DNA of 64,000 bases from Flavobacteriales bacterium (GCA_947502765.1 CANNBA010000006.1:38861-102860); one strand, 5' to 3'; positions 32,822-38,291 are shown, counted from the stretch's first letter. Made by a program: numbers and translations. The notes: generated by a model from the letters alone, not told the origin.

Positions 32822-34216
32822 ATGAAATATAGAATTGAAAAAGATACTATGGGGGAAGTAAAAGTTCCTGCAGATAAATACTGGGGAGCACAAACCCAGA
32901 GAAGTAGAAATAACTTCAAAATAGGTTGTGAAGCAAGTATGCCTATAGAAATCATTTATGGTTTCGCTTATTTAAAAAAGGCAGCAGCTCATACTAATTG
33001 TGAGTTAGGAGTTCTTTCATCAGAAAAAAGAGATCTAATCTCACAAGTTTGTGATGAAATATTAGCAGGGAAACATGATGACCAATTTCCTTTAGTTATT
33101 TGGCAAACTGGTAGTGGTACCCAAAGTAATATGAATTTAAATGAAGTAATTGCTAGCAGAGCCCATGTAATTAATGGAGGGACTTTACAAGATGCTAAAA
33201 AAACAATCCATCCAAATGATGATGTAAATAAATCACAAAGCTCTAACGATACTTTTCCAACAGGGATGCATATTGCAGCTTACAAAATGATAGTGGAAAC
33301 AACAATTCCTGGAGTAACACAACTAAGAGATACTCTTGCTTCAAAATCAAAAAAATTTATGAATGTTGTAAAAATTGGGAGAACACATTTGATGGATGCT
33401 ACCCCTTTAACTTTAGGGCAAGAATTTTCAGGATATGTTTCTCAATTAGATCACGGCTTAAAAGCATTAAAAAATACTTTAGCTCATCTATCAGAATTAG
33501 CTCTTGGAGGCACTGCAGTTGGCACAGGAATAAATACCCCTAAAGGATATGCTGAGTTAGTGGCAAAATATATTACTGACTTCACAGAACTTCCTTTTAT
33601 TACGGCAGAAAACAAATTTGAAGCATTGGCTGCTCATGATGCAATTGTTGAAAGTCATGGAGCTTTAAAACAAGTAGCCGTTTCTTTAAATAAAATTGCT
33701 AATGACATCCGAATGTTAGCCTCAGGACCAAGAAGTGGAATTGGAGAAATTTTTATTCCTGAAAACGAACCAGGCTCTTCTATTATGCCAGGCAAAGTAA
33801 ACCCAACACAAGCTGAGGCAATGACTATGGTTTGCGCACAAGTTATTGGAAATGATGTTGCAATATCAGTTGGTGGTATGCAAGGGCATTATGAATTAAA
33901 TGTGTTTAAGCCAGTAATGGCTGCCAACTTCTTACAATCAGCTAGATTAATTGGTGACGCTTGTATATCTTTTGATATAAATTGCGCTATCGGAATTGAA
34001 CCAAATTACGAGAACCTAAAAAAGAATTTAGACAATTCTTTAATGCTAGTTACTGCTCTAAACACCAAAATTGGTTATGAAAAAGCAGCCAAAATTGCTA
34101 AAACTGCTCACCAAAATGGAACAACCCTAAAAGAGGAGAGCATTAATTTAGGTTACCTCACTCTTGAAGAATTTGATACTTGGGTAAAACCAGAAGATAT
34201 GTGTGGAAATCTTTAA
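32822..34216 (+). CDS. fumC: Class II fumarate hydratase
   Basis: 464 aa with the [13 protein letters not shown] signature and the [10 protein letters not shown] motif. Confidence 0.95.
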
Positions 34217-34279
34217 ACTTATTTAAACAAAAAAAAGGATACAAAAATTGCACCCTCTTTTTTAAATTAATTAAATGAT

Positions 34280-34420
34280 CTAGAAGTTCCAATAATACCC
34301 AACTCCTATTGAGCCTTATCCAGTTCCGCTTAAGTACATATTATAATTAATTGATCTAATAATTATAGCCTACTTTAACAACAGGAGCACTGAGGAAGTT
34401 ATCTGTACTTATTCTTATAC
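34280..34420 (-). pseudogene. Possible decayed 3' remnant of an outer-membrane beta-barrel gene
   Basis: The minus-strand frame reads ..YLSGTG*GSIGVGYYWNF*, a terminal aromatic beta-strand signature, preceded in another frame by LGIRISTDNFLSAPVVKVGYNY*. It is broken by stops and has no start. Confidence 0.25.
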
Positions 34421-34540
34421 CCAATAAATATCTGAACCATCAACAGAATCTTCATTGCAAATATCTAAATGCAAACCAGCATTGATTAATAAAGAGCATT
34501 CTATTATTTGTATAGAGCAAAATACCAACAAAATAAAAAT

Positions 34541-34570
34541 CGAGACATAGTTCTCGCTCTTTTTTTATAG
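34541..34570 (-). terminator. Weak hairpin terminator candidate after the 334-aa gene
   Basis: 5-bp stem CGAGA/UCUCG with a 6-nt loop. It has a U-rich run on the minus strand (AUUUUUAUUUU) and a T-run on the plus strand. It lies 40-70 nt beyond the stop at 34610. Confidence 0.35.
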
Positions 34571-34609
34571 AATATTTCTATAAAAAATAGCTATTTTATC
34601 AAAGCCATC

Positions 34610-35614
34610 TTACTTCTTGTTCTTCTCCGCAGCTTTCTTATCTTCTTTTGCCTTCTTCTCCGCAGCTTTCTTATCTTCTTTTGCCTTCTTCTCCGCTGCT
34701 TTCTTATCTAAACTCTTCTGTTTCTCAATAGCTTTCCTAACATCAGATCGGTCATTACTTAATTTACCCTTTTTCTTCAAATCTTTTTCTACCAAAATTT
34801 GATTAGTTAATTCCTTCTCTGATGCCATAAGGATTAAAAGCTTTGAAGATTCGCTAATTTTAGATGTTTCTGGTTTAGCTGATTTTGCTTCTTCTAAATC
34901 AGTAGGCTTATTTACTGTAACTGAAGTTTGTATTGTAGCAGTTGATTCTTCCTTTTTAACTTTTGTTGCTTCTGCTTTTGCTTTTACTTCTGCTGCTGCC
35001 TTTTCTTCTTCTTTTGCTTTTGCTGCTGCCTTTGCTTCTGCTTTAGCTTCTGCTTTAGCTTCTGCTGCTGCTTTTGATTCTGCTTTTGCTACAGCTTTAT
35101 CTGATTCAGTTTTTTCTTTAGCTATTTCTACTAAATCAGTTTTTGAATCTGGTGCAATCAGAACTCTACAATCCTTACAATCAATATTCTTGTTATGCAT
35201 TAACATTGTATTCTCCCATTTATATGCTTCTTTTGCGCTCTGCTTGCCTGATTCAGTATAATATGAGGTTAATGTTCTATTAGAGTCAAAAATCATAAAT
35301 AATGAAGAAGGTTTATCGTAATACACCTCTCCCTGATTCATATTAGACTGATAATATATTTGAGCTACATTATTTCTAATATACTTATGCTTGTAACGAT
35401 ACTCTAAAATTAACTCTCCATTTTCTAAGTTCTGGTAAATATCAAATGGCTCAATTCCTAATTCTGAATTAACTTGAGCAGGAGTCATTCCTAACTCAAT
35501 ATTATATATCTTCTCAATAGTTGTAAAATATTCAATACTAATTTTATCTTGAGCAGATAAACTCATAGATAATAAAAGAATACCTGTAATTATAAAGTTT
35601 TTATTTTTTTTCAT
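34610..35614 (-). CDS. Secreted protein: BamE/SmpA-like small domain plus a long Lys/Ala/Glu low-complexity tail with an 11-aa tandem repeat
   Basis: 334 aa with signal peptide MKKNKNFIITGILLLSMSLSAQ and an ELGMTPAQVNSELG.P motif. The tail contains AKAEAKAEAKAAAKAKEEEK and a C-terminal (KKAKEDKKAAE)x2.7 repeat. No family recognised. Confidence 0.7.
   Translation of the reverse strand: MKKNKNFIITGILLLSMSLSAQDKISIEYFTTIEKIYNIELGMTPAQVNSELGIEPFDIYQNLENGELILEYRYKHKYIRNNVAQIYYQSNMNQGEVYYDKPSSLFMIFDSNRTLTSYYTESGKQSAKEAYKWENTMLMHNKNIDCKDCRVLIAPDSKTDLVEIAKEKTESDKAVAKAESKAAAEAKAEAKAEAKAAAKAKEEEKAAAEVKAKAEATKVKKEESTATIQTSVTVNKPTDLEEAKSAKPETSKISESSKLLILMASEKELTNQILVEKDLKKKGKLSNDRSDVRKAIEKQKSLDKKAAEKKAKEDKKAAEKKAKEDKKAAEKNKK
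34621..34709 (-). repeat. 33-bp tandem repeat, 2.7 copies (two perfect copies and a partial copy with one mismatch)
   Basis: tcttctccgcagctttcttatcttcttttgcct occurs at 34621-34653 and 34654-34686. A 23-nt partial copy at 34687-34709 carries one a>t change. The repeat encodes KKAKEDKKAAE units at the C-terminus of the 334-aa protein. Confidence 0.9.
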
Positions 35615-35620
35615 TTTTTC

Positions 35621-36211
35621 TTATTTATCGTTAATTTCAATAGTCCCTGAAGTTCCTACTTTTAACTCTATACCTATCTTACCTTTTAAGTCTAGAACGT
35701 CACATAAAGTACAATCTTTTGCTTCTTTATTATTATTTTCTTTTTCAATCTTTCTTTCCATTTTAATGCATGGCTCTCCTATACACAAAGTTGAAGAATA
35801 ATTAGAATTTACAACATAGTAGTACTTTTCTGTATCACAAGGACAGTATGAACAAGTATTATCTTCTTCAGTTGCTTTTGAGTTATAATTCCAAGCCAGT
35901 TTATCTGTACATCCTTTAATTACAACTGGTAACGATGGGTCAGGAATACATTGTGGCTCACAATTTCTTATTGGGTCATAGCTAGCATTTAAAATTTCTC
36001 CACACGGGCAATATTTACAAAGAGTTCTGTCATCAATATCAGCATCAGCATTGTAATTTTTTGCTTCTGAATCAATACATCCTGTTATTAATGGTTTTTC
36101 ACTATAGGAACATGTCCCTGATTCTTGTGTTGCCTGAGGATTGAAATTATTAGCCTTTCCCTTATGCCAAGATGGCCTTCCTTGATATTTTGGATCAGTT
36201 CCATCATCCAT
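35621..36211 (-). CDS. Cys-rich repeat protein, downstream segment (no signal peptide of its own; in frame with ORF 36392-36856)
   Basis: 196-aa track ORF with 20 Cys and repeats GCIDSEAKNYNADADIDDRTLCKYCPC and GCTDKLAWNYNSKATEEDNTCSYCPC. The frame stays open upstream for 60 more codons, to the TGA at 36392-36394. Confidence 0.6.
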   Translation of the reverse strand: MDDGTDPKYQGRPSWHKGKANNFNPQATQESGTCSYSEKPLITGCIDSEAKNYNADADIDDRTLCKYCPCGEILNASYDPIRNCEPQCIPDPSLPVVIKGCTDKLAWNYNSKATEEDNTCSYCPCDTEKYYYVVNSNYSSTLCIGEPCIKMERKIEKENNNKEAKDCTLCDVLDLKGKIGIELKVGTSGTIEINDK

Positions 36212-36391
36212 GCACCCAGTACAAACAAGATAATTCTCTTGAGTTTTACAAGATATTGAATTTTCTATGCAAAGAATGTCACGTGCTTTATATTTTGTAT
36301 TATCATTAATTATATTCTCAAGTTTACCATCTCTATAATATAGAAGAACTTGTTTATTTGCATCATCAGATGATTCAAACTTTGCTATTCC

Positions 36392-36856
36392 TCACTTTAA
36401 CGCAAATTCTGTATATATATCTTTTGCATTTATTTCTTGCATTAGTTTTCTATAATAGTGTTCATGAATTTCACAATTATCTTTTTGGTGATATATCTCA
36501 TATGGATAACTAGATAAAATAGCCCTCACCTGATCCTTGGTAAGTCCTTTTTGCAATTTAGCAAGAGCTGATACACTGACAAAAGTTTTTATAATTTTTT
36601 TATCATATGTACAGTTTCCGTTATCCTTTGTTGCACTTTTCTGATAGTTTATAGCTTCTTTATCCATACAGCCTAAGACTACAGGAGGGTATGTACAGCA
36701 AGAGTAATCTTTACCTCCTTTAACTTTCTTACAGTCATATTTAGCATCAGGATCATAATTAAGCCCTACATTATCCAAACAAGCAGGAGTTCCACAGCTA
36801 TAAAAGACACTCATAACTATAATTAAGCGAATTGAGGAATAAAATACTTTTTTCAT
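36392..36856 (-). CDS. Cys-rich lipoprotein, upstream segment (ends at an in-frame TGA inside a BamE-like domain)
   Basis: 154 aa with a lipoprotein signal (MSVFYSC), repeats ACLDNVGLNYDPDAKYDC and GCMDKEAINYQKSATKDNGNCTY, then GLTKDQVRAILSSYP, which is homologous to the domain of the 334-aa neighbour. Confidence 0.65.
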   Translation of the reverse strand: MKKVFYSSIRLIIVMSVFYSCGTPACLDNVGLNYDPDAKYDCKKVKGGKDYSCCTYPPVVLGCMDKEAINYQKSATKDNGNCTYDKKIIKTFVSVSALAKLQKGLTKDQVRAILSSYPYEIYHQKDNCEIHEHYYRKLMQEINAKDIYTEFALK

Positions 36857-36894
36857 ATTATTAATATTAATTATTTTTATTTTAGAGAAAAACT

Positions 36895-36996
36895 CTATTC
36901 AGGAGAATCTTCTTTAGCTGCTTTTTCTTTAGCTGCTTTTTCTTTATCTGCGATAGCTTGAGCTTTCAAATCAGATGTTAATCTTGTTTGTTCCAT
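36895..36996 (-). CDS. Unlisted 33-aa small ORF with a KEKAA repeat
   Basis: Manual translation gives MEQTRLTSDLKAQAIADKEKAAKEKAAKEDSPE. It has an A-rich leader (ACAAAAAAAAAGGGAAA ATG) and ends 38 nt upstream of the Cys-rich lipoprotein gene on the same strand. Confidence 0.3.
   Translation of the reverse strand: MEQTRLTSDLKAQAIADKEKAAKEKAAKEDSPE
36911..36951 (-). repeat. 15-bp tandem repeat, about 2.7 copies
   Basis: tctttagctgctttt occurs at 36911-36925 and 36926-36940, with a partial diverged copy at 36941-36951. The repeat encodes the KEKAA units. Confidence 0.85.
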
Positions 36997-37155
36997 TTTC
37001 CCTTTTTTTTTGTAGGTGCAATACATAAACTTAATTTAAAAAAGAGCCCATATTCCAAAAAAAAATTCTTATCTAGTTTTTATAGAAAAAATGTTACGGA
37101 TATAGATTTTAGAGTGTCTGTTATAAACAAATTTTTGTTAATTTCTTTGTTTGGT

Positions 37156-38232
37156 TTATGACAAATTAATTTTTAGGTCCGCAACAAATTGTTTTATTTG
37201 TTGTTCATTTTCTTTTTTGCAGATAAGTAAAGTTCCTTCATTTTCTACAACTATATAACCATTCATCCCCTGCATTACAACTACCTTATCATTTGGAACT
37301 TTAATAATGTTATCCGTTGAATCATAAAGCATCACTTTGTTTCCTTGCACCGCATTTCTATTCTCATCAAGATCAAGATGCGCATACAAAGACCCCCAAG
37401 TGCCTAAATCGCTCCACCCAAGATCTGTAGGATAAACATATACATTTTCTGATTTTTCCATGATTCCATAATCAAGAGATATATTTTTACAGCCAGGAAA
37501 AACTCTATCAATAAATTCCGTTTCTTTACTGGTATTATAAAATTGTTTGCCTTGTTCAAAAACATCATACATATCACGCAATTGTTTGCGAAAAGCTAAT
37601 GTTATGGATTTAGCACTCCAAACAAACATCCCAGAATTCCATAAAAAATCGCCACTATCTAAAAAATTAAGAGCCAACTCCTGATTTGGTTTCTCAGTAA
37701 AAGTTTTAACCTTTCTTATTCTTTGGTGATTGTCTAATTTCTCAGGTGTAAATTGAATATACCCATAGCCTGTATCGGGCCTTGAAGGAGTGATCCCAAG
37801 AGTTAATAAAATATCATTCTTAGCAACTACTTCCAAACAATCATTAGCCACTCTTACAAATTCATCTTCTTTAAGAATTATATGATCAGATGCGGCAATG
37901 ATCATATTGGCATTCTCATTCATACTCTGAATTTTAAAAGCGGCATACGCAACACAAGGAGCAGTATTTCTCATAGCGGGTTCGCAAAGAATATTACTTT
38001 CAATGACATTTGGCAATTGTTCTAAACACAGGTCTTTATAATTTTTATTGGTTACAATTAATATGTTTTCTTTAGGGCAAACTCTTTGTAAACGATTAAA
38101 TGTTTGCTGAATTAGAGTTTCTCCTGTACCTAATATATCTAGAAATTGTTTGGGGAAAGTAACTTTGCTCATGGGCCAAAACCTTGAGCCTATTCCTCCT
38201 GCCATTATTACGGCATAATTATTTTTATTCAT
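37156..38232 (-). CDS. Mannose-1-phosphate guanylyltransferase (GDP-mannose pyrophosphorylase)
   Basis: AVIMAGGIGSRFWPMSK..PKQFL nucleotidyltransferase motif. About 358 aa from ATG 38232; the track start at 38238 is a TTG. Confidence 0.9.
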   Translation of the reverse strand: MNKNNYAVIMAGGIGSRFWPMSKVTFPKQFLDILGTGETLIQQTFNRLQRVCPKENILIVTNKNYKDLCLEQLPNVIESNILCEPAMRNTAPCVAYAAFKIQSMNENANMIIAASDHIILKEDEFVRVANDCLEVVAKNDILLTLGITPSRPDTGYGYIQFTPEKLDNHQRIRKVKTFTEKPNQELALNFLDSGDFLWNSGMFVWSAKSITLAFRKQLRDMYDVFEQGKQFYNTSKETEFIDRVFPGCKNISLDYGIMEKSENVYVYPTDLGWSDLGTWGSLYAHLDLDENRNAVQGNKVMLYDSTDNIIKVPNDKVVVMQGMNGYIVVENEGTLLICKKENEQQIKQFVADLKINLS

Positions 38233-38291
38233 CTTCAACTATCTTTCTCAAAAAAAATTGGCCGCTAAAATACAATAATTAAAACTATAAT

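Follow-up and report, generated by a model that had tools for sequence, protein, structure and literature searches.

An eroded outer-membrane gene cassette between fumC and manC in an uncultured marine Flavobacteriales bacterium

The region between fumC and manC in the DNA analysed here (a single stretch of 64,000 nucleotides, hereafter the window) is an eroded copy of an outer-membrane gene cassette that is conserved in uncultured marine Flavobacteriales. Intact, the cassette comprises a small OMP_b-brl barrel of the 8-strand type, the C-terminus of which runs into a Lys-rich tail; a lipoprotein combining a BamE-like domain with Cys repeats of the disulfide type; and, just downstream of it, a BamE-like paralogue with either a fused beta-barrel or a Lys-rich helical tail at its end. 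In the window, the locus is mostly a gene wreck and not a working new surface system, and only the 334-aa protein (p334) is still intact among the cassette genes. The full reading, an eroded cassette whose intact form would serve as a barrel-docked periplasmic tether or scaffold, is given a probability of about 0.5.

Lesions of the fumC-manC locus

fumC lies at 32822-34216 on the plus strand and manC at 37156-38238 on the minus strand, and the remains of the cassette occupy the minus strand between both. ORF analysis confirmed the minus-strand frames initially annotated there, namely a small ORF and frames of 154 aa (36392-36856), 196 aa (35621-36211) and 334 aa (34610-35614), together with the intergenic gaps of 38 nt and 6 nt within the set. 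The features of the locus are as follows.

34283..34516, minus: decayed C-terminal beta-barrel remnant of protein 2, with four in-frame stops (tblastn to P0057)
34541..34556, no strand assigned: hairpin resembling a terminator in either direction, in the interval where p334 and fumC converge (consensus match only)
34610..35614, minus: protein 2 (p334), intact (ORF; AlphaFold2; Foldseek; BLASTP paralogy)
34613..35137, minus: tail of p334 made of Lys/Ala/Glu repeats, with predicted helices and a length that varies between alleles (TRF, AlphaFold2, allele comparison)
35240..35533, minus: BamE/SmpA_OmlA-like (BLIP-like fold) domain of p334 (BLASTP, AlphaFold2, Foldseek, hhalign)
35621..36856, minus: lipoprotein pseudogene, one 411-codon frame (frame translation; intact homologues P0001-P0011)
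36302..36595, minus: central BamE-like domain of the lipoprotein (aa ~88-185), interrupted by a stop (Pfam, BLASTP, model and Foldseek)
36392..36394, minus: premature TGA, codon 155, inside the BamE-like domain (GGA, Gly, in intact alleles)
36895..36996, minus: 33-codon small ORF, a deletion scar (comparison with relatives carrying the OMP gene)
36964..36991, minus: junction of the ~700-nt deletion that took out the barrel gene (blastn breakpoints and alignment)

The lipoprotein gene had been described as split and 410 aa long. The split stands, but the frame has 411 codons and is broken by a single in-frame TGA with no frameshift; an intact relative of 98% identity (P0001) has Gly, encoded by GGA, at the position of codon 155, and the same TGA allele is present in relatives L024-L028. 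The encoded protein runs from a lipobox (...VFYS-C21) through Cys-bounded units to the central BamE-like domain, further Cys repeats and a YCPC region, and its AlphaFold2 model is of moderate confidence (mean pLDDT 62.8). The Cys-bounded units (pattern GC.D..A.NYN..A..DDGSC.Y) are confined to this protein among those of the locus, as had been noted before. Units of this kind, about 24 aa in length, are also seen in large T9SS-type secreted proteins and before a polysaccharide deacetylase.

Read-through or recoding of the TGA, or a role for the lipoprotein halves and the 33-aa peptide as separate products, would leave the locus fully functional. The allele is common enough to have been assembled from several samples, the frame downstream of the stop is otherwise clean, and a GGA to TGA change at a Gly codon is found in a second lineage (L037). 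However, TGA serves as a normal stop codon in this genome, 6 of the 51 window genes ending in it; here it cuts a folded domain and leaves a downstream piece of 196 aa without a signal peptide. The position of codon 155 is occupied in relatives by Gly, Ser, Asn, Glu, Thr or Asp and never by Cys, which argues against selenocysteine, and the pseudogene differs from the intact allele by 6 non-synonymous and 4 synonymous changes. Independent nonsense or frameshift lesions are present in L037, L067, L073, L082 and L083; because these include GAA to TAA in a third lineage (L083) and frameshifts in others, the pattern is one of loss and not of recoding, and a fully functional locus is very improbable.

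The second lesion lies at the small ORF (43 aa if its start is taken at 37026). Relatives of 95-99% identity carry an OMP gene of ~255 aa at this position, and 27 nt in the window stand against 731 nt in L002. The small ORF, in which Tandem Repeats Finder detects a 15-nt unit, derives its last ~22 codons from the terminal part of the (KEKAAQE)n tail of that OMP_b-brl gene; for its first ~30 nt, no source was identifiable. The barrel assignment holds for the OMP of L002 (PF13505, 33.3 bits; cut-off 28.7) and of L012 (PF13505, E 7.5e-19); a Pfam match, signal peptide and terminal strand ending in an aromatic residue are found together in relatives only. No barrel remnant similar to the deleted OMP occurs elsewhere in the window.

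The split and the missing gene might also be put down to assembly or sequencing. The region is rich in tandem repeats, which can collapse in assemblies, and N-runs interrupt the OMP tail of some related contigs. Such an artefact has next to no probability, since independent metagenome contigs show the TGA allele and the small ORF again, without change: five samples and two assembly sources yielded contigs with the identical TGA and scar sequence, the scar being the same in 5 contigs, and the deletion covers the non-repetitive barrel, not repeats alone.

The third lesion concerns p334. This protein starts with a signal peptide that has no lipobox (aa 1-22); its BamE-like domain spans aa ~28-140, and a tail rich in Lys, Ala and Glu takes up aa ~160-334. 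Downstream of its stop and in the same frame lies the remnant at 34283-34516, which ends in ...GSIGVGYYWNF and a stop codon. By tblastn, it matches residues 240-329, the last 90, of P0057, a protein made of a BamE-like domain plus a barrel (E 3.6e-8 in the 393-nt flank, 1.6e-7 in a wider search). The decayed beta-barrel-like fragments reported initially in this flank are therefore real. Intact barrels are fused to protein 2 in L029 and L072-L093, that of P0120 matching OMP_b-brl_2 (PF13568) at E 1e-27. p334 has thus lost a C-terminal barrel, in an older event that is common to its close relatives.

The BamE-like domain of p334 is 100% identical in nucleotide sequence to that of relatives L001-L006, as against about 97% for the flanking genes and only 87-91% for the tail. 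Because this domain is 100% identical across populations, it may still be doing something on its own. The AlphaFold2 model places the domain at pLDDT 84-95 and predicts long helices at 160-218, 255-281 and 290-333. Alleles are 299, 323, 334, 335, 344 or 348 aa long, and Tandem Repeats Finder resolves repeats of a 33-nt unit at 34620-34709 and of 12/18-nt units at 34966-35098 in the tail. Lys/Ala/Glu tails had been proposed as a module common to p334 and the small ORF; both have such tails, of like composition, but the repeat units differ, and a common origin is not borne out.

The cassette in related genomes

All 48 of the metagenome loci with enough upstream sequence to be informative have the lipoprotein gene immediately upstream of the second one, and the pair is also adjacent in L007-L023. 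Tight co-occurrence of the genes is thus borne out. The OMP gene itself is found upstream in 14 of the 27 loci with room for it, and downstream instead in L012 and L060 (OMP_b-brl, E 3e-19). Of 55 complete protein 2 genes, 20 encode a fused barrel; several loci carry both an upstream OMP and a fused barrel, and the pair is without a recognisable barrel nearby in L048, L053, L055 and L057. The tails vary as well, with (KEKAAQE)n, (KKVAAP)n and (KAKEKQAAKDK)n repeats on different subunits, and a terminal Lys is present in 61 of 144 non-barrel family members versus 11 of 51 window genes. A gene for a SPOR-domain protein adjoins the pair in L014, a weak link to peptidoglycan.

The initial annotation had taken the region for an accessory islet and for the best candidate for an undescribed cell-surface system. 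Intact versions occupy the same sprT-manC / fumC-prfB position in six relatives (L029, L074, L076, L079, L080 and L087; fumC 76-89% identical), a result that goes part of the way to the conservation at this position which was to count against the initial reading. Because these lie at the same manC/fumC site, the locus is an old, eroding one and not an acquired islet. The suggestion of gene turnover at the site was sound, given the deleted OMP gene and the decayed barrel remnant. The gene set as annotated, with its 33-aa deletion scar and a lipoprotein bearing a nonsense codon in its folded domain, is no working system. It also lacked the main partner, the small outer-membrane beta-barrel, which was overlooked because it is deleted or decayed in this genome.

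Fold, family and cellular location

Residues 23-147 of p334 and 86-205 of the lipoprotein align at 24% identity (BLASTP, E 1e-7), and from sequence the shared domain is a case of real paralogy, more than a motif. Foldseek searches with both models returned almost exclusively OsmE, BamE, BLIP (also BLIP-I and BLP) and TpgA-N (9vnj_B) as top matches, the best being 5wam_A, the BamE of N. gonorrhoeae, for the lipoprotein (E 4e-4) and 4dm5_D (E 7.9e-3), with target TM-scores of 0.5-0.6. These models and matches, of modest E-value, point to a two-layer fold like that of BamE, OsmE and BLIP, and they agree with the initial assignment of a BamE/SmpA-like domain to both large proteins. An alignment of 133 members against E. 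coli BamE gave a probability of 88.5% in hhalign (E 2.7e-6) over just 49 columns, covering the lipobox and first helix motif, and a PDB profile search reached BamE at E 0.14. Nothing in Pfam or NCBIfam passed threshold for the window proteins. Against PF04355 (gathering score 23.2 bits), the window lipoprotein scores 15 bits (E 0.022) at profile positions 2-25 only, p334 has no match, and relatives reach 17.9-20 bits; 12 of the 133 family members match at E<=0.01 (best E 2.5e-4), and 9 of the 133 show weak DUF3192 matches. The absence of a named family noted initially thus holds: structure prediction with fold and profile searches yields a BamE/OsmE/BLIP-like fold but no curated family. With about 339 cluster representatives among 1.84 billion proteins, this is an undescribed, little-known family.

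A lipobox-like N-terminus is present in 151 of 180 family proteins; p334 is an exception, with an ordinary signal peptide (..SLSAQ/D). Even-stranded barrels have both termini in the periplasm. Surface lipoproteins of Bacteroidota are marked by two acidic residues after the lipidated Cys (PMC12578637). This motif is absent in 149 of the 151 lipobox-bearing members, the other 2 having an LES-like motif, and the window lipoprotein has no acidic residue in its C-GTPACL sequence. Since the surface-export signal is missing, the lipoproteins probably face the periplasm, as judged from sequence.

The same evidence bears on the initial proposal of a cell-surface system, in which a tethered disulfide-rich binding module and a charged spacer would lie outside the cell. 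The occurrence of the ~24-aa Cys-bounded units in T9SS-type secreted proteins means that they could be a binding module, and surface lipoproteins are common in Bacteroidota (PMC12611786). The proposal nevertheless deserves very little credence: apart from the missing acidic signal, the T9SS C-terminal domain is absent, as had been observed (no Pfam match even at E<=1; C-termini ...EINDK and ...EKNKK), and two of the three components are broken here. To our knowledge, BamE-fold lipoproteins of known location are periplasmic.

Proposed function and known systems

The locus has suffered three lesions in this genome: loss and decay of the protein 2 barrel, the older event; deletion of the barrel gene upstream, with the 33-codon scar left behind; and a GGA to TGA change within the folded domain of the lipoprotein. 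In the intact cassette, BamE-fold domains would dock on the periplasmic face of a partner barrel, lipid anchors would hold the docked domains at the outer membrane, and the Lys-rich, largely helical tails would extend into the periplasm in the direction of peptidoglycan or of the inner membrane, the whole assembly acting as an envelope tether or spacer. The p334 tail, with about 130 helical residues in the model, would measure roughly 19 nm if extended. Gene adjacency and fusion are what suggest the association of BamE-like domain and barrel, and a common target for tails of differing repeat type is assumed. BamE docks on BamA. TpgA-N, likewise a BamE-fold domain, attaches to the AtaA barrel, and TpgA and AtaA share an operon (PMC12523085). 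Recurrent erosion in these streamlined genomes would follow from a dispensable function.

A bolder form of this proposal is unlikely: an unrecognised tethering system in which small barrels are capped on their periplasmic side by the BamE-fold lipoprotein pair, while helical tails ending in Lys link outer membrane and peptidoglycan, through electrostatic attraction or an Lpp-like cross-link, and set the width of the periplasm; or else a cassette that supplies the BamE function 'missing' from a phylum said to be without it. If true, recurrent loss of the cassette would mark ongoing envelope simplification in streamlined ocean bacteria.

Alternatively, the pair could be the functional BamE of this lineage, as accessory lipoproteins of BAM that aid the folding of barrels, including neighbouring or fused ones. 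The best structural matches are BamE chains in BAM complexes, the hhalign result points the same way, and BamE is dispensable in E. coli too. Bacteroidota reportedly have no BamE homologues (PMC12578637), so the niche could be open. We nonetheless hold this to be rather improbable. The family is narrow and repeatedly pseudogenised, the Pfam BamE model is never passed, and no bamA or bamD occurs in any of the ~90 loci examined. BAM complexes purified from Bacteroidota contain other subunits, BamG, H, M and P, or BamG to BamK (PMC12611786, PMC12578637).

The pair might instead be an inhibitor like BLIP, two single-domain proteins that together mimic the tandem protein and bind and hold in check an enzyme of the periplasm, for instance a hydrolase of peptidoglycan or a protein of the penicillin-binding type. 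The top fold matches include BLIP, BLIP-I and BLP, the paralogous domains are always co-encoded, and the superfamily (PepSY, DUF2874, BLIP, SmpA_OmlA, DUF3192) has been proposed to work by binding partner domains (PMC2954215). However, no conserved candidate target enzyme lies beside the pair in the loci examined, and an inhibitor would leave the recurrent fusion to or adjacency with beta-barrels and the Lys-rich tails unexplained, so that its probability is low.

The tether or scaffold reading can be set against known systems. BamE/SmpA_OmlA proteins (PF04355), including OsmE, provide the top fold matches for both window proteins and likewise have a small periplasmic domain of helices on an antiparallel sheet, placed after an N-terminal lipobox and a 'GMT..qV...LG.P' motif. 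Unlike them, the present family scores below the Pfam cut-off and over the first ~25 profile positions only, has a longer domain (about 100-115 aa), takes the form of two paralogues encoded together, carries Cys repeats, Lys-rich tails or a fused barrel as extensions, and is without a bamA/bamD link. The BLIP-like superfamily (BLIP, DUF3192, PepSY, DUF2874; PMC2954215), whose member families are periplasmic partner-binding modules, is matched at the level of fold (BLIP, BLIP-I, BLP), whereas the present proteins have one domain per chain and not a tandem, no known enzyme partner, and an outer-membrane anchor.

The tails recall other envelope proteins. OmpA-type proteins combine a barrel with a periplasmic extension, and TolA domain II and Lpp form periplasm-spanning Lys/Ala/Glu helices. 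Similarly, the PF13505 barrel in the OMP of relatives continues at its C-terminus into a periplasmic extension, the tails are predicted to form helices rich in Lys, Ala and Glu, and a final Lys, as in Lpp, is common among family members, a suggestive feature, with peptidoglycan attachment putative. Unlike in these proteins, the tails consist of simple repeats whose unit varies, and no OmpA_C, TolA or LPP domain is matched by cassette proteins in Pfam or NCBIfam.

The TpgA-AtaA system of Acinetobacter sp. Tol 5 (PDB 9VNJ; PMC12523085) also places a BamE-fold domain in one operon with an outer-membrane barrel. TpgA-N binds the periplasmic face of that barrel, as is inferred for the present family, and a second module is directed toward peptidoglycan, as proposed here. 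In TpgA, this module is a peptidoglycan-binding OmpA_C domain, whereas the present family has a low-complexity Lys-rich tail and the TpgA-type combination of SmpA/OmlA-like and OmpA_C domains is found in no cassette protein; the AtaA barrel is a 12-strand trimeric autotransporter, in contrast to a small barrel of the OMP_b-brl type. What the cassette has in common with TpgA is operon logic and fold only.

A disrupted gene set between fumC and manC

The minus-strand open reading frames (ORFs) of this locus lie between fumC and the gene for GDP-mannose pyrophosphorylase (manC), and were placed by an ORF scan as follows:

32822-34216, plus strand: fumC, the flank on one side of the ORF set
34610-35614, minus strand: 334-aa ORF (p334, also termed protein 2)
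35621-36211, minus strand: 196-aa ORF
36392-36856, minus strand: 154-aa ORF
36895-36996, minus strand: small ORF of 33 aa (43 aa with a start at 37026)
37156-38238, minus strand: manC, the flank on the other side

These coordinates bear out the gaps of 38 and 6 nt originally described within the set, whose G+C content (25-35%) is not distinct from that of the remaining window. An Rfam scan of 34000-37400 (E ≤ 1) found no RNA, a sigma-70 scan was no better than with shuffles (19 sites against 15.8 expected), and a search for the Bacteroidota promoter motif TTG...TAnnTTTG gave no match.

Translated in one frame, 35621-36856 forms a continuous 411 codons with a single internal TGA at codon 155, and the "split" of this lipoprotein gene is therefore a nonsense codon rather than a frameshift. 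A word-indexed search returned 11 full relatives, all metagenomic, the closest of which (P0001; 98% identical, 411 aa) is intact and carries Gly (GGA) at codon 155. Alignment of the lipoprotein with its relatives reveals a lipobox with its Cys, four to five units that are bounded by Cys and follow the pattern GC.D..A.NYN..A..DDGSC.Y, a central domain of ~100 aa, and a YCPC...C...C region followed by a conserved DC.LCD end. The stop falls inside the central domain, and the downstream 196-aa ORF uses an internal Met as its start, without a signal peptide. Across the stop codon, the gene differs from the intact allele by 4 synonymous and 6 non-synonymous changes, for which dN/dS is uninformative. 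Recoding of the TGA, as selenocysteine or under code 25, was rejected: TGA is an ordinary stop that ends 6 of the 51 window genes, the codon-155 position is never Cys in relatives, and TAA is found in another lineage.

The small ORF is a deletion scar. Six related loci, 95-99% identical to the window (L001-L006), carry in order manC, a gene of ~255 aa, a 411-aa lipoprotein, a 344-348-aa protein, a gap and fumC. The additional gene, here the upstream OMP, encodes a barrel of the OMP_b-brl type (PF13505; 33.3 bits, cut-off 28.7), and in relatives its C-terminus runs into a tail of (KEKAAQE)n repeats that finishes ...KEKAAKEDSPE. A stretch of 731 nt in L002 is reduced to 27 nt in the window, and it is the end of this tail that supplies the last ~22 codons of the 33-aa ORF. 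When the relatives' OMP was searched against the entire window by tblastn, no trace of the barrel turned up. The 33-codon scar ORF opens with ~30 nt (36964-36996; GAACAAACAAGATTAACATCTGATTTGAAAG) that match nothing in any related locus and look like filler DNA at the deletion junction. Because the identical scar and identical TGA recur in contigs from several independent samples, both lesions are real alleles in a natural population.

Between populations bearing the TGA and those bearing the intact allele (the window against L001-L006), the lipoprotein gene is 99.1% and p334's N-terminal domain 100% identical, whereas manC (97.0%), fumC (96.6%) and the repeat tail (87-91%) are less so. The cassette core (34610-36856) is thus far less diverged than its housekeeping flanks, which suggests a recent recombination tract or sweep over the cassette, followed by very recent lesions. 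Cassette genes are also broken independently in other lineages, with GGA to TGA at codon 218 in L037 (844-2055), GAA to TAA at codon 136 in L083 (696-1517), and frameshifts in L067, L073 and L082, some of which could be assembly errors. All three nonsense mutations, including that of the window, are G to T at codon position 1, with GGA to TGA occurring twice and GAA to TAA once.

The BamE-like fold and the barrel of protein 2

The 334-aa protein comprises a signal peptide without a lipobox, an N-terminal domain and a Lys/Ala/Glu tail. Its N-domain shares 24% identity over 128 aa (E 1e-7) with the central domain of the lipoprotein and is, judged by sequence, a true paralogue of it. AlphaFold2, with a 20-sequence alignment, modelled the N-domain at pLDDT 84-95 and predicted the tail as long helices (160-218, 255-281 and 290-333). 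The top Foldseek matches of p334 in the PDB were OsmE, BamE, BtiO, BLIP-like proteins and TpgA-N; the lipoprotein model, with a mean pLDDT of 62.8, matched Neisseria gonorrhoeae BamE (E 4e-4), then BLIP, BamE and TpgA-N. The "BamE/SmpA-like" designation of the initial annotation is therefore right at the level of the fold in predicted models. By the Pfam criterion the shared domain falls outside the BamE family: the sole Pfam match of the window lipoprotein is to BamE at E 0.022, below threshold and over profile positions 2-25 only. In hhalign, the family gave 88.5% probability against Escherichia coli BamE, over the lipobox and first helix motif only. The statement that no named family is present holds, as the window proteins matched nothing above threshold in Pfam or NCBIfam.

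These fold matches frame two rival readings of the pair. One is an accessory role in the BAM complex; in Bacteroidota, two structural studies describe BAM complexes without BamE (PMC12611786, PMC12578637), and the phylum is said to lack BamE homologues (PMC12578637). The other is a BLIP-like inhibitor. A type VI secretion (T6SS) immunity role, prompted by the weak BtiO match, was rejected, there being no T6SS genes nearby.

In a word-indexed search, p334 alone retrieved only two identical fragments, and an alignment of locus-derived relatives was needed. A full HMMER search with the protein-2 profile, covering 1.84 billion cluster representatives, recovered 339 proteins at E ≤ 1e-3, of which 166 reached E ≤ 1e-10. 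In none of the 133 members scanned did the shared domain pass a Pfam family; at the C-terminus, some have an OMP_b-brl or OMP_b-brl_2 barrel (P0120, E 1e-27), and a beta-signal-like aromatic last residue occurs in 14 of 30 members of at least 280 aa. One member, P0057 (329 aa), has an N-domain 34% identical to that of p334, and its last 90 residues match window positions 34283-34516 (tblastn, E 3.6e-8) in the frame of p334, with four stops. The "decayed beta-barrel-like fragments" noted earlier in this flank correspond to the cut-off barrel of protein 2; by this match, the remnant is assigned to a protein-2-fused barrel and not to the upstream OMP. The Lys/Ala/Glu tail of p334 now lies where the first half of the barrel stood, and the flank contains a second and older wreck.

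Other members differ at their C-termini. Four (P0055, P0058, P0064 and P0073) join a lipobox and BamE-like domain at the N-terminus to a hydrophobic, transmembrane-like helix at the C-terminus, an odd topology for an outer-membrane lipoprotein. Across the family (P0014-P0182), 61 of 144 non-barrel members (42%) have Lys as their final residue, these being related rather than independent sequences; the share of Lys in the 20 residues before it is 14%, and a terminal Lys is encoded by 22% of window genes. This terminal residue is reminiscent of the C-terminal Lys of Lpp.

Conservation and plasticity of the cassette

The TARA contig of P0057 (L029) reads sprT, manC, a 281-aa lipoprotein, P0057 and fumC, the last 79% identical to that of the window, and so occupies the same site. 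In L087 the intact cassette lies at the position that it has in the window, reading feoB-sprT-manC-OMP-lipoprotein-protein 2 with barrel-fumC-prfB (fumC 89% identical). The locus is therefore old, conserved in the lineage and not acquired, contrary to the accessory islet first proposed. In other lineages the cassette lies between ruvX and uvrA. Two junctions thus exist for one cassette, sprT-manC/fumC-prfB and ruvX/uvrA (L033-L045, L084-L086, L087, L088), with L088 a hybrid (ruvX-cassette-fumC); the edges of the cassette seem to fall at breakpoints of rearrangement.

Among GTDB representatives, matches to the lipoprotein family were confined to MAGs of uncultured Flavobacteriales, Cryomorphaceae, Schleiferiaceae, Crocinitomicaceae and "Sphingobacteriia" (best match 49% identical), and the paralogue always follows the lipoprotein gene. 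A metagenome scan with a four-sequence alignment (A6) added 64 marine loci. The lipoprotein gene is directly upstream of protein 2 in 48 of the 48 metagenome loci with room, confirming the expected co-occurrence of the two; the OMP lies upstream in 14 of 27 with room, protein 2 carries a fused barrel in 20 of 55, and several loci have both. Lys-rich tails shift among all three cassette proteins between lineages, with differing repeat units. Cassette content is unusually plastic despite the lineage-conserved locus.

Several further elements were observed around the pair. The ~24-aa Cys-bounded unit of the lipoprotein, matched by no Pfam model, behaves as a mobile mini-module: P0012 has at least eight tandem copies, P0013 carries it N-terminal to a polysaccharide deacetylase (PF01522), and it recurs in large secreted-type proteins near the cassette (L085 3-2339; L017 460-1074). 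In a sub-clade with a short protein 2 (179-188 aa) lacking a barrel, the pair is adjoined by a multi-pass membrane protein of 172-286 aa without a Pfam match (L011 4979-5836, L057 4601-5461, L048 4602-5126). The gene directly after the pair in a Schleiferiaceae MAG (L014 7354-8259) encodes a peptidoglycan-binding domain of the SPOR family (22.6 bits, cut-off 21); the similarly placed gene of L015 has no Pfam match, and a SPOR link, confirmed by Pfam in L014 only, was rejected.

Orientation and likeness to known systems

Surface lipoproteins of Bacteroidota follow a rule of two acidic residues after the lipidated Cys (PMC12578637). The initial annotation put forward, as speculation, a cell-surface system, and surface binding stands as an unlikely rival reading; the window lipoprotein has the sequence C-GTPACL, the rule is satisfied by just 2 of the 151 family members that bear a lipobox, and a Pfam scan of the window proteins found no T9SS C-terminal domain, which together speak against it. 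Even-stranded barrels have both termini in the periplasm, and the OMP tail would then be periplasmic too. Most likely, the system resides at the outer membrane, on its inner face. Overall, the initial observations were confirmed and extended, and their interpretation was partly supported.

The constant element would consist of two paired BamE-fold domains kept at the outer membrane, for which the small barrel, adjacent or fused, would be the recurrent partner by a Rosetta-stone type of argument. The analysis shows a BamE-fold family that neither Pfam nor NCBIfam contains. It is restricted to uncultured Flavobacteriales and related Bacteroidota, and small outer-membrane barrels consistently accompany it or are fused to it. 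Its proteins represent, at family level, a new variant among BamE- and BLIP-like proteins, present here as a wreck, and the value of the window locus is chiefly as a pointer to the intact cassette elsewhere. For annotation, what had looked like a small ORF, a split gene and an odd flank proved to be three decay stages of one cassette, caught in natural populations.

The closest worked example of a barrel-docked BamE-fold domain is TpgA-AtaA, in which the BamE-fold N-domain of TpgA attaches to the barrel of AtaA, a protein from the same operon, and another TpgA domain binds peptidoglycan (PMC12523085). Given this precedent and the recurrent barrel partner, the favoured reading, by analogy, is that the cassette would form a barrel-docked periplasmic tether or spacer. 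If characterised, it could reveal an outer-membrane-to-wall connection in these Lpp-less bacteria, and would be the second example, after TpgA-AtaA, of BamE-fold domains as dedicated barrel partners.
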